DNA of 64,000 bases, taken from assembly GCA_010015585.1 (NCBI GenBank), contig ML975156.1, one strand, 5' to 3'. Made by a program: the position numbers and the translations under genes. The DNA comes from Eremomyces bilateralis CBS 781.70 (Eukaryota). Below are positions 55,659-62,853 of the stretch, piece by piece (positions within the stretch are counted from its first letter, which is position 1; each line of letters starts with the position of its first letter). A model generated the notes under the pieces. That model was not told the DNA's origin, ran no database searches, and saw only the letters and a program-made list of their open reading frames with translations.

Positions 55659-56420
55659 ATGAATGCAGGCACCGACGGAGGAATCCGCATCGGCATATTC
55701 ATCATGAATGGGGGTCTGCGACGACCGACAATCGCGAATGATGGTTCTTGACCATTCACCGACATAGGGAAATATGTGCTGGGGGTGCGCATTCAGCGCT
55801 GGATACCAAGTTCTGGCTTATATAAATAGCACGGTTATTCCCGACACACTGTAATATACATAGTTGCCGTCCAAAATGGGCAAGGTGTTCGGGTACTTGC
55901 AAAGAATCCGAGACACAATTCACTCTGTGGATGATGTAGCTAGCACCTTGGGCACTTTGACGTGCCAAAAGACAGCTCTAAAAAGCACTTAGGATAATAT
56001 AGAAGTTGATAATTACCTTATCTATTTATTCGGATTAATCAAAGGCCCTACTGTAGTACTGAGTACTCACCTCTGCAGCTCTGCTTCAATTGCATCAACA
56101 GTGGAACAGTCCCCAATGCGGGAGCACCCGTTGAACTTGAACAGAACCCGGCATATCAATGTTACAAGTACGGAATACGGAGTACTAAATACCTCCTAAA
56201 CAGTCCTAACCCATACTAAATAAATACAGCTGGGCGTCCACGGTCCAAAGCCTAAACTCCCAAGTCCCAAATCCTCGAAGTTCGACGAGAAGACCCTGCA
56301 GACGGCTGCAGTACCGTAAACCCCGACCTCCGTCATTCTTAATTTCATCCCCATCAACCGCATCAGGGCTTTGATGACCCCGACCGTACCTTCAAATCCA
56401 CACCACTCATTGCCTACAAC

Positions 56421-57414
56421 ATGACGTCCGTAAATCCCCCACCAGCTCCATCATGGAGCGAAGACGAGCTCATCGAGGCGCTGGCGCTTCTCGAAAACAT
56501 GCAAGAACAGGTACCGCCGCCCTCCTCACCCCCTCCCCAACCCATCTCCAGGCGACATACTAACCCCAACCCCCCCCCCGTAGCTCGATCTCCTCCGCAC
56601 CATTCCCGCCGGCATCATCCGCGCCCTCGGCGCTACCCATCTGTCCCCCGAAGACTACTTCCAGAACTTCCTCGTGCCCGCGCACGGCGGCTCGCGGCGT
56701 CTGAACAAGTTCTCGACCGACTGGCACGGCGCGCCAGTGCGTGGGATTGTGGAGCACGCGAGCGCGCGGGAGAAGGAGGACGCGGATCTGAGCGCGGGGT
56801 TGACGGTGCCGAAGTACGGGTGGAGGGAGCTGGCGAGGTCGAATGCGAGGGTGAAGAAGGAGGGGGAGGATGGGGAGAGGGGGACAAAGAGGGAGGAGGT
56901 GGAGGAGTTAGTGAAGGGGTTTGATGAGCAGACGGAGAAGGCCACGGTGAATTTTGATAAGGAGAGTTTGGTGATTAAGGTACGTGGTTCGCGGTCGGAG
57001 GGACGCGACGCAACTAATATATGGTACAGATACAGCTGAAGGTGCCACAGTGGAAACTGCGGTTCGTTCTGAATCCGGAGTTTGACGACCAGGACCATGT
57101 GGTCTATCAAGTAGAGTGTGTCGGCAGCAAACCCGCGCAAACCTCGATTACGCGGTGCATGAACAAACGCCCGGCTGCTGGCGACCTCCAATACCTTCTG
57201 GTACGTCCTCCGCCACCAGCGCAACCCCATGGCTAATTCCGAGCAGGACATGATCGGCGCGTATCAGGATGCCCCCTTCGTGACTTGCGCCATCTGCAAC
57301 AAAACCGTCAACCAACAGGTCATCCACCCCACCGGCCGACGCAGAAAGGAGATTAAGAACGACGACGGCACCACCGAGACCGTCTGGGAGCCCTACCACG
57401 AATCCTGCACCTGA
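56421..57414 (+). CDS. MED27: Probable Mediator complex subunit 27
   Basis: C-terminal YLL|DMIGAY..FVTCAICNK..PT.R..WEPYHESC matches the Med27 zinc-binding tail; 3 introns. Confidence 0.72.
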
Positions 57415-57432
57415 TCTCCCGTTCCGAGCGCA

Positions 57433-57897
57433 CTAAAACCCCTCCACCCACCCATGTGCATCCGGCACACCCCAATGCCCCCACACATCCCGCACCATCC
57501 CCCGCTCCGCATCCACATCGCTCCACGAATACGCCCGCGGGTACCGGTAGGTCCTTGACCGAAAATCGTACACCTTCCCCGGCCGCCGGTAGCGCGCGGC
57601 GGGCCACAGCGGCGGCAGGCTCGCGTCGTCCAAGAGAGGATCGAACTGGGTCCAGCGGCTCCAGCGGGCGCGGGGGACGGGCTGCGCCGCGGGTGAGGCA
57701 GTGATAGAGAGGAAAATGTCAGGGCCGCGGCCGGTGAGGAGGTCTTTCCAGCGGGAGCGGCGGGTGCCGTTGTGGTGGTCGCGCGGCCAGATGAGGTTGT
57801 AGTGGGGCTTGTCGATGCGGACGCGGTGGCCGTTGCGGACCCAGCCGACGCCTTTGATGAATTCGGGGCGGGGGTTGCGGGACCACGGGTTTTCCAT
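57433..57897 (-). CDS. Hypothetical basic Trp/Arg-rich protein
   Basis: ORF from ATG 57895-57897 (MENPWSRNPRPEF...) with GC3-biased codons. Confidence 0.55.
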   Translation of the reverse strand: MENPWSRNPRPEFIKGVGWVRNGHRVRIDKPHYNLIWPRDHHNGTRRSRWKDLLTGRGPDIFLSITASPAAQPVPRARWSRWTQFDPLLDDASLPPLWPAARYRRPGKVYDFRSRTYRYPRAYSWSDVDAERGMVRDVWGHWGVPDAHGWVEGF

Positions 57898-58393
57898 GTT
57901 ATGAAGATATGGCTGAGAGTTATGGGAGGCCGATGACAGATGCTTGGTGTTTAGCGGGGAATCGAGGAAGAATGGTATATTGGTGACTTGGATTACGGCC
58001 TTTGTTCCGAAGCGGCACTTATATTGAGCTCTGTCAAGGGGGGCAAACCGCACGACACATTTATGTTTGATATCGTGATTTTACGGATATGTAGAAGAGA
58101 ATTCATTGTTGCCAACAAACACTTGTCCTGCATCATGCTTTGATGCAGTAGGCAATCAGATGGGGAGTATGGTCCAAGGATCGGTCGTTGAAATGGGCGG
58201 GCATGATTGTTCTGCTCCCGGCAGATGTCAAATCGGGCAACATGCGTTAGAATCCGATCATTCCGGAGTTGATGTCACAACCGTAGCATCGTGGATCAAA
58301 TTGAGCAGAATCGCAAACGTTTGTAGACGCGGGTGATCTCGGATCTATTGACGGCTATACTGTACAGAAGATTTCTTCATAGCATTCGCTCCC

Positions 58394-58821
58394 TCACAGC
58401 TTGCTGATGAACAGCCTCGCCAACATCGTCCGCATGTTCTTCGGCAGGATATATTTGGTGAACACGTAGATCAGCGCCGGGATGAGGATGAACGCCGTGG
58501 TAACCTCGTTGACGAAGTAGAAGGGGATGAGCTGGGGCATGGCGGCGTAGAGCATGGTCTATGATATCGTCAGTACCGCGAATCCCACCACGCTCCTCGT
58601 CTAATGCCGTGACATACGTAGTTTGGCTTCTCCTGCTTCGCCGGGGCGGCCAATTGGTTCCGGGCCTGCTGCGCTCGGAACGAAGGAACCTTCACCGTGG
58701 ACACCTTCGCCGAGGTCGACGCGGCGCGGGCAATCAGGGACCGCGAGGCCGTGGATTGAAGGCCCAGCGATTGGCGCTGGAGGCCCTGCACAAGAGGGCG
58801 GAACAGTCGTGATGAGGACAT
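58394..58821 (-). CDS. ATP8: Nucleus-encoded mitochondrial ATP synthase subunit 8 precursor (74-aa leader + 48-aa Atp8)
   Basis: Exon 1 58618-58821 (MSSSRLFRPLVQGLQRQ...KQEKPNY); phase-0 intron 58559-58617 (GTATGT..CTGAC..TAG); exon 2 58394-58558 (TMLYAA-MPQLIPFYFVNEVTTAFILIPALIYVFTKYILPKNMRTMLARLFISKL*). Confidence 0.92.
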
Positions 58822-59461
58822 GATGCTAGCAAGCAATTAGCTGGTTGGGTGTTGGAGTCGGAAGGTTTGCGGGCAGAGCATACGGAGCGGGTGGATGGGT
58901 AGGAGGGGTCAGAGTCGGTTTGATGGACCAATTCCACAATCAAAGTCAGCCACACCGACGTCGGTAAGGCAGCTGATGAATTGATGGATGGGATGGAGGT
59001 TGGAAGGCCGTTGGTTGATCGGACGGGTCGTGGTAGAAGCTCTCTCTCGACCATCAAGTTTGGGTTGGAATCCACGAAGCATGAGGTCGGAGAAACTGCG
59101 GCCGGCAAAAGGATGATCCGGAGCAGGGATATATGTGGCTGATTTACTGTGGCTGATTTACTGTGGCTGAAGTGCTTCACTGCTTTTTTCTGTTTTTCTA
59201 CAAACAAAACCGCGTTCACGTGTTTGGGTGCAGGGGGTTGCGCTCTGCATATCGGAGCTTCACCTTTCGCTCCATCAGACTGGCATCGTTGCTATGAAAA
59301 GTTGCTTGCTAAAAGGAGCTTTCACGCTCCCTCTCTACCCTCCCCCTACCCAGTCGATTGGTTCCCTTCAGTGACACCGATATTGTTGAAACTCCTTTCT
59401 CCGTTTGATCCCCATACCGAACGACACACCTTCCTCCAACCCACGATCCACGCCGCCCACC

Positions 59462-62400
59462 ATGTCGCTCTTTTCGAAGTTGAATACTGGGCAAACAACT
59501 CAGTCGAGCCTATTCAACCCGACGAGCACCACTTCAGCGGCCCCAACATCATTCAGCAGCCTTTTTGGAGCACCGCAAGGGACCCAGCCCCAGAGCAATC
59601 AGAGCAATCCTGCGACATCCAACCCAATGTCACAGGGTACACAACCTTTCGGTCTTAGCCTGGGAGCGACCACAAGTTCATCACAACCTCCGCAGCCTAC
59701 ACAGCCTGCACAGCCTTTCGGTCTTGGGTTTGGAGCGACGACAAGTTCATCACAGCCCGCGCAGGTAGCACAGCCAGTGCAGCAACCACAGCAGAACACC
59801 CAAAACAACCAACAGGCGACCGGCGGTTCCAGTCAATCGGCATATTTCGATCACCTCCTGGAACGAGCCCGAAAGAACAACAAAAACAATGGCGTCTCGC
59901 AGTTCGGGGAGCTGCCGAACCTCCAATTGGGGCTGGCGGACATCGCCCGGAAAGTGCGAGATCTGGGGACGGGCGGCCCGGCGGAAGCTGGAGCACCGGG
60001 AACGAACGCGTATGTGTAACTTGTGACCGGAGTTTATTTGCGCTTCATCTCATGTGCCCCCCATGCTGACCACGATTCAATTCTAGACAATATCTCCTCG
60101 CTGCTTCGGGCGTGTCAGTCGCGTCTGCCTTGCGCGATCTGAACGACGTCACTGCGCGATCGGGAACAAACGTCGCCGCGCAAGCTGCCAACGAACCGGA
60201 CGCCGATATCGACGCCTATGTCGCCGGCCTCCATGCGCAAACAACGTCCGACCTCATCACGCAGAGTTTGGAGCAATCCAAACGGGACTTCGATGCGTTT
60301 TTGGAGGAAAATGTTCAGATGGAATGGGATGCTCAGCGACGACGCATCTATGAGCACTTTGGCTTGGTTGGTGCAAGGGAAGAGGATGGTAGTGTCGACG
60401 CGTCACAGAGTGGTTTTGGCAGGTCGTCCCGGAGAAACAGACCATTGGCAGCCTCTACATCGGTATTGGATCTTGGTCAGAACGGCATGTCCATTCGAAA
60501 ATCGGTCATTGGAAATGCGGGAAAGCGAACACTTCGTGGATCCGCCCTGGGGGATCTCCCCAAGGAAAACTCAGGAAACAACCTTGCCTCCATCGGTGGC
60601 GATGCCAGTGCACATTTCCAACGGAACAAGCAAGAGAAATATGGCCAGAAGGTATCGGAGCTCAATCAGGCTCGGATCGGTGAGTTGACATACCCGCTCC
60701 TAACCCAGTTCTGCGAGGTCGAAGCTCAATCCAACGTGGACGATACCTCCTATTTGGTAGATTCCTACAAATCGCTCATCGAAGGTACGGAAGAGTCAGC
60801 GGTGCAGACGTCGCTGGATCAACCGGGCGCCATACGGGAGCGGAAATTTGCTCGGCTATACTTGAGCGATGATGCGCAACGATCCATGGACATTCGGAAG
60901 CGAATTCTCAACGGATCGAGGAAGTCGCTAGAGAACAAATTCCTCGCGCACGTCGACGCAACCATCGAGCGCAACCCGAAGGAGGCAAGGCTTGGAGGCA
61001 TCCCTACGATTCTCAACCGTGTCCGAGCATACATCCGAGTCGCCACCTACCAAAAGGAGCTGGGTGCTGAAGTGGAGCAACTCCAGACTCTCAACGACGA
61101 TTACCTGTGGGTTCTCATCTACTACCTCATCCGGTGCGGCCTGGTCACCGAAGCGGCTCAGTATGTCCAAGACAGCCAACGGGCCATCGTGGGAATCGAC
61201 CGCACATTTCCCCAGGTCATGTCCGCCTACGCCAATGACCCCGAGCGAACGCTGCCTCCTGATTTAGCGCTTCGCCTTCGCCAAGAGTGGAACCGGCAGT
61301 CTAGCTATCCCACGGAGCAAGTCGATCCGTACCGGATGGCATGCTACAAAGTCATTGGCCGCATCGAGCTCGAGCGACGCACGTTGCCAAACATCAACAT
61401 GAGTCATGAGGACTGGATCTGGCTGCAGTTTGCTCTGGCGCGGGAGTCGCGGCCCGAACAGGAGCTTGCGGCCAATGTGTTCGACCTGGCTGCATTGCGA
61501 CAAACCGTGGTCGATATTGGGAATCGGCACTTCAAGGCCGGCGCGGACAACATCGAAAGCCCGGGCACGTTCTTCCACCTGCAGATGCTCGTTGGCATGT
61601 ACGAGCAAGCGGTCGCGTGGCTCTACGACTTCAACCACGTCGCGGCCATCCACTTCGCCATCGCGCTGGAATACTACGGACTACTTCGCGTTTCCGATTT
61701 CAACCAGTCCGAGCTCCTGGGCTTCAGCACGCGAGAGGAACCGCAGATCAACTTCGCGTTGATGGTCGGCCACTACACGGGCGACTTCCGCTCCGCCAAA
61801 CCCGAGCTCGCCGTCGACTACCTCACCCTCATCTGCCTCAATTCCGACCTGGAAGGCGCGCTCGGCGAGCGACAGTCGCAAATCTGCCTCGAGGCGCTGC
61901 GCGAACTCGTCCTCGAGACCAGGGAGTTCGCCCTCCTTCTCGGCGACATTCTCGCCAACGGGGAACGCATCCAGGGCGCGATCCAACGGCGCTCGAGGCT
62001 CATCCGCATTCAGAACGAAGATACCTTCCTGCAGTTCATCACCTCCCAAGCCGCCGCGGTGGCAGAAGACTGCGGCCGCGTCACCGACGCCGTACTCCTC
62101 TACCATCTCGCCGAAGACTACGACAGCGTCGTTTCCGTCCTGAACAAGACTCTATGCGAAGTCATCTCCACGGAGCTAGGCCAAGAGCGAATCCGACTGA
62201 TCCCGCCGAAGCCGCGTGTCCAGACACCCGGCGAAGCGAAACCGGAGCTGCAGAGCTCATTAAGCCTGACGACGGTGGACGACCCGTCGATCCTGGCCGA
62301 TAGTATCCGGCGGTTGTACATGAGCAGCCAGGAATTCTCCCGGCGGATCACGAAGTCCAACTGGGAGATACTGGGGCGGATGGTGATGCTTGCGAAGGCG

Positions 62401-62853
62401 CGAGATCTAGTCAATCAGGGAAATTGGGATGGCGCTCTCATGGTAAGTTCCCCAGATCCTCTCTCGCAACCCGCGTTCTCGTGGAGGTGGAGATGTTATT
62501 GACGCGCGACTAACTCACGATCCCAGGTCACTAAGCAGACTAATCTCCTCCCGCTCTCCGCGCAAGGCGACATCGCCGCCATCCGTACCGCTGCGAACAA
62601 CTTCAATGCGTACCCCGAACTGTTGGCGCGCACCGTCGGCCCGCTGCTGCTCTACACCATCGTCGCGTGCGGGCAGGAGCGCAAGCGGCTGCGGGGGTCG
62701 CCGTACTTCGACGCGACAAAGGTGACGCGCGTGGAGGAGTTGGGGCAGGACGCGCGGGATCTAATGGTGTTTGCGGGGCTGGTGAGGTATCGGTTGGAGG
62801 GCCGCGTGTTCGAGGCGTTGGCGAGGGCTGGGGGAGATGCGGAGGTGGCGTGA
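59462..62853 (+). CDS. NIC96: Nuclear pore scaffold nucleoporin Nic96/Nup93
   Basis: FG-like N-terminus, ELPNLQLGLADI, QSKRDFDAFLEENVQMEWDAQRRRIYEHFGL, WVLIYYLIRCG, DPYRMACYKVIGR, EDWIWLQF, FAGLVRYRL; 2 introns. Confidence 0.95.

Follow-up and report, generated by a model that had tools for sequence, protein, structure and literature searches.

Subunit 8 of the ATP synthase is encoded by mitochondrial DNA in most fungi. The locus described here raises the question of whether Eremomyces bilateralis CBS 781.70, a dothideomycete of the order Eremomycetales, specifies this protein by a working nuclear gene. The window, by which we mean the whole analysed stretch of 64,000 nucleotides from contig ML975156.1, had been given a first-pass annotation from its letters alone, and the core of that reading was that ATP8 is present as an intact, spliced nuclear gene behind a presequence-like leader, derived by organelle-to-nucleus transfer. 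The profile search, the splicing and the dN/dS values reported below agree with it, and we conclude that the locus is very probably a functional nuclear gene for the ATP synthase Fo subunit 8 (Atp8/A6L) of E. bilateralis.

The coordinates given at first pass, 58394-58821, proved exact: they delimit the coding sequence from ATG to stop on the minus strand, with a spliced product of 122 aa (Table 1). The coding part of exon 1 (58821-58618, 204 nt) ends in phase 0 and encodes the peptide MSSS...KPNY; exon 2 (58558-58397, minus strand) adds 54 codons in frame with it. Both translation and the transcript contig described below confirmed the proposed in-frame joining of a 48-codon ATP8 segment to a 68-aa exon. 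The coding intron sits six codons upstream of the ATP8 Met (MPQL), and the linker encoded by these codons is conserved across the family as [T]-x-[LM]-x-[AS]-[AG] (alignment A1, 25 precursors). The 3' border of the other intron lies 4 nt upstream of the ATG, and this intron is absent from the same contig as the coding intron. On reading the 5'UTR exon upstream of it we saw no ATG.

Table 1 Features of the nuclear atp8 locus of E. bilateralis (positions are those of the window)
Feature	Position	Strand	Basis
5'UTR exon	58884..58986	-	Transcript contig piece; contig end at 58986, then Illumina adapter letters
5'UTR intron, 58 nt, GTATGC...GCTAAT...TAG	58826..58883	-	Contig joint 58825/58884
Exon: 4 nt of 5'UTR, start codon 58821-58819 and leader codons, 68 codons in total (P0002)	58618..58825	-	Sequence, contig
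Phase-0 spliceosomal intron, 59 nt, GTATGT...TACTGAC...ATAG	58559..58617	-	Contig joint 58558/58618
Linker TMLYAA, six codons between intron and ATP8 Met	58541..58558	-	Translation
Mature ATP synthase subunit 8 (A6L) segment, 48 codons, MPQL...FISKL	58397..58540	-	PF05933 (72.8 bits), yeast chain alignment
Stop codon TGA	58394..58396	-	Sequence, ORF list
3'UTR, 3' end beyond what the contig fixes	57800..58393	-	Contig piece 57800-58558

Letter for letter, the product equals a protein already in the databases: NCBI, from a contig of 997,570 bp, lists it as 'hypothetical protein P152DRAFT_449061 [Eremomyces bilateralis CBS 781.70]', and in UniRef the same 122-aa protein bears the name 'ATP synthase protein 8'. 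The forecast that standard annotation would either miss the gene or call it hypothetical was therefore half right: an identical model is deposited, so that the gene was not missed, and UniRef recognises it as ATP8, but the NCBI name is indeed 'hypothetical protein'. A suitable substitute for the latter is 'ATP synthase subunit 8, mitochondrial precursor'.

The identity of the mature part is plain. The Pfam profile search matched residues 7-54 of exon 2 to positions 1-48 of the 48 positions of PF05933 (Fun_ATP-synt_8), with 72.2 bits where the cut-off is 26.1 (E 3.7e-20), and this full-profile match supports the ATP8 assignment made at first pass. The yeast ATP8 chain 6b2z_A aligns ungapped to residues 1-48 of the mature segment (E 1.7e-10), which is also matched by 37 further solved-structure entries. 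It comprises about 48 residues: an MPQL start, a single hydrophobic helix and, at the C-terminus, a basic tail with SKL as its last residues. No second ATP8 copy was found within the window by tblastn of the mature part, the next match having E 1.5.

The surroundings and the composition are those of the nucleus. The divergent neighbour on the plus strand encodes Nup93/Nic96 (PF04097, 560 bits at 60070-62499; profile end at 62503-62850). The GC content is 0.53 in the window and 0.61 in the ATP8 coding sequence; GC3 reaches 0.79 in exon 1, 0.93 in exon 2 and 0.94 in the mature part, next to 0.70 in Nic96, and the 72 mitochondrial-type loci gathered for comparison have a total GC of 0.21-0.33. 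The Nic96 neighbour and these values identify an ordinary nuclear locus and not raw mtDNA; the statements at first pass that the codons mostly end in C or G, that a spliceosomal intron is present and that the locus is no raw AT-rich NUMT hold. The NIC96/Nup93 gene itself extends over 59462-62853 (+), with about 320 bp between the transcript ends at 58986 and 59303. In its first open frame (59462-60016), S, T, Q and P abound and FG-type dipeptides (SLFG, PFGLSLG, PFGLGFG) occur; this frame gave no Pfam family match.

Transcript evidence came from a single public run, X1, in which 73% of the sampled words of 58200-59000 are present; it was the only run that matched, none is on record as RNA, and its library type was taken as RNA by guess. 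An X1 contig of 2514 nt lies on 57800-59600 with 0 differences and omits exactly 58559-58617 and 58826-58883, both of which have CT..AC borders on the plus strand, i.e., GT..AG on the gene strand. The predicted coding intron is therefore removed, as the first-pass annotation had expected for 58559-58617, and so is a second intron of 58 nt in the 5'UTR, both in a contig whose RNA type is guessed. X1 contigs are unstranded and hold neither expression level nor 3' end information, and the stop of this one at 58986 gives an approximate 5' end of the transcript. A second X1 contig begins at 59303 and covers the neighbour gene on the plus strand.

At its other end the atp8 contig extends 1427 letters beyond 57800 (approximately 56373-57800 of the window, both strands), so that it may be a merger with a convergent transcript; probably a convergent gene overlaps the atp8 3'UTR in the unstranded assembly. 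Among open frames of the plus strand at 56343-57039 there is a faint resemblance to NRP1_C, at an E of 0.0015 that falls short of the cut-off.

The leader comprises the 74 aa that precede MPQL. With seven Arg, four Lys, a single Glu and no Asp it has a net charge of +10, and S, T, A, R, L and Q account for 68% of its residues, in agreement with the composition described at first pass. Residues 5-15 (RLFRPLVQGLQ) have a helical hydrophobic moment of 0.85, which was equalled by 1.9% of 2000 shuffles. To judge from its composition, the leader fits a matrix-targeting presequence. Mitochondrial presequences are processed at R-2, R-3 and octapeptide-type motifs; in the alignment of 25 precursors, inspected by eye for these motifs before MPQL, no Arg is conserved at a fixed distance, and the last Arg before the MPQL Met stands at -21 in the window's protein and at -3 to -56 across the family. 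The exon-1 peptide gave no Pfam family match. A search for a leader donor with residues 1-68 returned only the protein itself among four candidates; the word index is a weak probe for leader-type sequence, and therefore no donor gene can be named.

The same architecture recurs in many Dothideomycetes. An exhaustive HMMER search with the 54-aa exon 2 as a query yielded 137 representatives at E <= 1e-3, of which 24 reached E <= 1e-10, and 20 of these best 24 have a C-terminal ATP8 domain behind at least 22 extra residues; some N-terminal extensions among the exon-2 matches are read-through of introns or of AT-rich mtDNA and not leaders. With the whole precursor as a query, 25 proteins were recovered at E <= 1e-3 among 31 candidates, 17 of which align, leader and all, with 98% or more of the 122-aa precursor. 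The named sources are Verruconis, Venturia (three species) and Tothia of Venturiales and allies; Lasiodiplodia and Macrophomina (already annotated 'ATPase F0 complex subunit 8 mitochondrial fungal') of Botryosphaeriales; the Trypetheliales genome bins Bogoriella, Trypethelium and Bathelium; Delitschia, Aaosphaeria, Corynespora, Dendryphion, Kalmusia, Didymosphaeria, Sporormia, Westerdykella, Pyrenophora teres and Pleosporales sp. CAS-2024a of Pleosporales; and, among other Dothideomycetes, Trichodelitschia, Lepidopterella and Aulographum. Aligned (A1), the 25 precursors start with M-[SN]-S-x-R-x-x-R-P-[LF]-A-R-A, Pro9 being found in at least 90% of rows, and have 20 invariant columns, all of them in the mature part except Met1. 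All 25 leaders are basic, with net charges of +5 to +11 and zero to three acidic residues.

Three further proteins (P0017, P0033 and P0022) were left out of the leader analysis, as 102, 174 and 155 of 300 shuffles, respectively, equalled the leader-HMM score of their N-terminal extensions; these are probably mis-called upstream sequence. Another odd candidate, P0007 (178 aa), consists of three identical tandem mitochondrial-type ATP8 copies with the linker NSLPKPHPFVNLPLQSG, and text similar to this linker follows ATP8 in P0073 and P0079. It is probably a read-through around a small repeated or circular mitochondrial contig rather than a real fusion.

Shared gene structure was seen in environmental DNA. 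A scan of metagenome contigs gave 80 loci, eight GC-rich (0.46-0.62) and 72 AT-rich (0.21-0.33). Counted back from the ATP8 Met, codon -6 is immediately preceded by an AG acceptor in all eight GC-rich loci, except that in L005 the codon is -7; seven of them have the conserved leader on an upstream exon with an in-phase GT donor at its end, and introns of 52-67 nt; the eighth, L056, is truncated at the contig end. The intron of the window occupies the same position as those of the GC-rich environmental loci. The common leader and the common intron position argue for one ancestral nuclear gene.

The mature part is under purifying selection. Pairwise comparison of the window's sequence with eight nuclear-type loci (Nei-Gojobori) gave dN/dS of 0.10-0.39 at dS of 0.57-2.2, values that are rough, given a nearly saturated dS and a strong codon bias; the alternative outcome foreseen at first pass, a ratio near 1, was not what these relatives returned. 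Nuclear-type mature sequences are also less hydrophobic than mitochondrial-type ones from AT-rich loci, as 32 distinct sequences of the former type and 54 of the latter demonstrate (Table 2); the environmental mitochondrial sequences being related, the p-values of the hydrophobicity comparison are not independent tests, and its direction is the informative part. The window's protein, with a GRAVY of 0.89, Glu12, Pro21 and Ala41, conforms to the nuclear type. Hydrophobicity as a limit on the import of organelle-encoded membrane proteins is an established view in the part of the literature available to us (PMC10809612), and the contrast between nuclear and mitochondrial forms is consistent with such a limit.

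Table 2 Mature ATP8 of nuclear and mitochondrial type
Property	Nuclear-type (n=32)	Mitochondrial-type (n=54)
GRAVY, whole mature part	0.89	1.26
Best 17-residue window	1.79	2.27
Helix Pro21	29/32	0/54
Glu12	32/32	14/54
Residue 34, commonest	Gln (29/32)	Arg (51/54)
Residue 35, commonest	Arg (19/32)	Phe (52/54)
Ala41	32/32	2/54

Taken as a working gene, the locus would operate as follows. Transcription would start from the promoter region of about 320 bp that is shared, divergently, with NIC96, and the transcript is spliced twice, as in the X1 contig. Translation in the cytosol would produce the 122-aa precursor, whose basic leader of about 74 aa with its amphipathic stretch would guide it through TOM/TIM23 to the matrix, after which the leader would be removed by cleavage. 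The remaining 48-aa subunit with its single helix would be inserted into the inner membrane and join the base of the peripheral stalk of F1Fo. The mitochondrial copy of E. bilateralis would have been lost, to judge from its absence in relatives. The gene itself would go back to one ancient transfer from mtDNA to the nucleus, common to much of Dothideomycetes, in which a mitochondrial piece and a leader exon became joined across the intron.

Whether a mitochondrial copy persists beside the nuclear one is the point on which the strongest alternative turns. In an incomplete transfer the nuclear gene would be functional and E. bilateralis would have retained an intact, expressed mitochondrial atp8, the two copies being redundant or differently regulated, as atp9 copies are in some Pezizomycotina. 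Such coexistence, at least temporary, is hinted at by the nuclear-type precursor of Vermiconidia calcicola (Mycosphaerellales), since Mycosphaerellaceae are reported to keep the mitochondrial atp8-atp6 pair and to co-transcribe it (PMC7999263, accessible part), and combinations of nuclear and mitochondrial atp9 are described across Pezizomycotina in the text available of another study (10.1101/2021.03.17.435722). Against it, the mitogenomes reported for Pleosporales (PMC5626475, PMC11881002, PMC7225605) and Macrophomina (PMC8451660) lack atp8 according to the portions of these papers at hand, and a GC3 of 0.94 with dN/dS of 0.10-0.39 suits a sole, essential copy. We regard an incomplete transfer as unlikely.

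An ATP8-derived paralogue with another role, for example an inner-membrane protein outside complex V, with ATP8 supplied from elsewhere, is very improbable. The substitutions peculiar to the nuclear forms (E12, Pro21, Q34, R35 and A41) could be read in that sense; all of them reduce hydrophobicity, however, which is what import would lead one to expect, and the positions shared with yeast (MPQL.PFYF, the K-Y-x-LP motif and R..ARLFISKL) are retained. Moreover, relatives with the nuclear gene have no other atp8 as far as the accessible accounts of them go (PMC5626475, PMC8451660).

A non-functional NUMT or decaying pseudogene with a chance open frame, which has mitochondrial ancestry and nothing more in its favour, is scarcely credible, as the nuclear composition, the dN/dS below 0.4 and the splicing in the RNA-derived contig rule out an AT-rich, unspliced and neutrally decaying insertion, the frame runs without defect through the full PF05933 profile, and orthologues with the same leader and intron exist in many orders.

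This leaves a functional nuclear gene as our preferred reading, and with it the question of when the transfer occurred. For a tree we used the 48 columns of the mature part, with 36 rows of nuclear and 76 of mitochondrial type. In the free tree all 36 nuclear-type rows fell into one clade (SH-aLRT 95), together with the mitochondrial-type L008; 48 columns resolve little else. L008, which adjoined the window's sequence there, is a metagenome contig with ATP8 at 1516-1659, a GC of 0.25, a branch of 0.61 and an unusual sequence (…KYILPSNTRKIFSRFYISKI). We rejected it as a true neighbour: its GC content is plainly mitochondrial, and the tree in which the 36 nuclear rows were constrained had an lnL 33.7 above that of the free quick search and was not rejected (p-AU 0.866), so that the placement is likely a long-branch effect.

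Two further sets of sequences bear on its age. P0018 and P0147, from contigs of 197 and 452 kb of Vermiconidia calcicola (Dothideomycetidae, Mycosphaerellales, Extremaceae), encode a nuclear-type ATP8 precursor, and the Vermiconidia leader scored 11.7 bits with the leader HMM, a score reached by none of 300 shuffles (best shuffle 9.2). By sequence, this rock fungus of Mycosphaerellales probably has the leader-intron-ATP8 gene. As other Mycosphaerellales have a mitochondrial atp8, in the available text of the report on them (PMC7999263), the two copies may have coexisted, or a separate event may have taken place. P0026, from a bin labelled Pyrenula ochraceoflavens (a eurotiomycete, Pyrenulales), is an ATP8 precursor with a leader of Dothideomycete type (MSSARLLQPLARA...); the leader alone scored 25.9 bits, and again none of 300 shuffles came as high. 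Judging by this score, the bin clearly contains the leader-intron-ATP8 gene; either the label or the purity of the bin is at fault, or the nuclear gene is not confined to Dothideomycetes. If the labels are right, the genes of Vermiconidia and of the Pyrenula bin would make the transfer earlier than proposed.

A further reading, to which we give less than even odds, is that nuclear atp8 had one origin, earlier than the loss suggested in print to follow the split of Dothideomycetidae and Pleosporomycetidae; Eremomycetales, Trypetheliales, Venturiales, Botryosphaeriales and Pleosporales all have the leader-intron-ATP8 gene. An early single origin, if true, would imply a long coexistence of nuclear and mitochondrial atp8 and several losses of the latter, and the phase-0 intron would be the seam at which an mtDNA fragment captured a pre-existing leader exon. 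It would also be a rare and datable natural experiment in making a hydrophobic organelle gene importable, by a helix Pro and a drop in GRAVY from 1.26 to 0.89.

The published record provides the frame for these data. Franco et al. (2017) described mitogenomes of Pleosporales without atp8 and atp9 and a nuclear atp8 in Stemphylium lycopersici (TW65_04673), whose product is N-terminally longer and has a targeting peptide predicted by TargetP; in the text at our disposal they suggested that the mitochondrial loss followed the Dothideomycetidae/Pleosporomycetidae split (PMC5626475). Shiraia-like species, also of Pleosporales, have a nuclear atp8 and mitogenomes without it, in the accessible portion of that report (PMC11881002), and Song et al. 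(2020) found atp8 absent from nine of the 20 mitogenomes analysed, in what is available of theirs (PMC7225605). The gene list of the Macrophomina mitogenome, as given in the part consulted, has atp6 and atp9 and no atp8 (PMC8451660); the nuclear genome of Macrophomina encodes the ATP8 precursor P0146. Across eukaryotes, transfers of atp8 are rare, with a count of fewer than six (PMC10809612).

In the literature that we searched, with most subscription journals outside it, no report joining Eremomyces and atp8 was found, nor any joining atp8, Dothideomycetes and presequence, and the 2017 paper on Pleosporales was the sole fungal account of a nuclear or nuclear-encoded atp8. The phenomenon is not new: the 2017 paper had already described a nuclear atp8 with a targeting peptide from Pleosporales, and many Dothideomycete nuclear genomes have annotated orthologues. 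What goes beyond the print we found is the class-wide leader, the phase-0 intron six codons before the ATP8 Met and the shared hydrophobicity-lowering substitutions, including the helix proline, as well as the nuclear-type gene in a fungus of Mycosphaerellales and in the bin with the eurotiomycete label. Leader, intron position and substitutions are all common to the class, and E. bilateralis, from an order that has received little study, contributes a well-documented locus whose splice structure is supported by transcript data. Missing atp8 in mitogenomes of Dothideomycetes should not be taken as loss of function. Natural transfers of atp8 reveal the changes that allow a hydrophobic protein of the organelle to be imported, knowledge that matters for the allotopic expression of ATP8.

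The nearest point of reference for the mature part is the mitochondrially encoded Atp8 of S. cerevisiae (6b2z), which likewise has 48 residues and aligns with it without gaps from end to end; the MPQL.PFYF.N start and the RLFISKL end are common to both. The yeast protein is synthesised inside the organelle without a leader, whereas that of the window has a leader of 74 aa, a Pro in the membrane helix and a lower hydrophobicity.

Engineered allotopic yeast ATP8, for which the leader of Neurospora subunit 9 was reportedly used, is a laboratory construct, whereas the gene in the window is natural, with a conserved leader of its own, a junction intron and a mature part made less hydrophobic by its substitutions. 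Both share the route proposed here, cytosolic synthesis behind a long leader followed by import and assembly, which succeeded with the yeast construct according to the accessible text (PMC10809612). The nuclear ATP9-5 and ATP9-7 genes of Pezizomycotina (Dequard-Chablat et al. 2011, as summarised in the available part of 10.1101/2021.03.17.435722) are similar in that the gene of a small hydrophobic Fo subunit moved from mtDNA to the nucleus; there the mitochondrial copy is variably retained, and both the subunit and the transfer event differ from those of the ATP8 studied here.

Closest of all are the nuclear atp8 genes of Pleosporales, which resemble the window's gene, as far as their description in the accessible text of the 2017 paper allows comparison, in nuclear location and in an N-terminal extension predicted to be a targeting peptide. 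Ten named Pleosporales precursors have the leader motif or the mature-part signature of the window's protein. Their leaders measure 50-55 aa in the Pleosporales rows of A1, compared with 74 aa in the window, and the order differs too: the window's gene belongs to a fungus of Eremomycetales and represents this order in the known nuclear ATP8 family.
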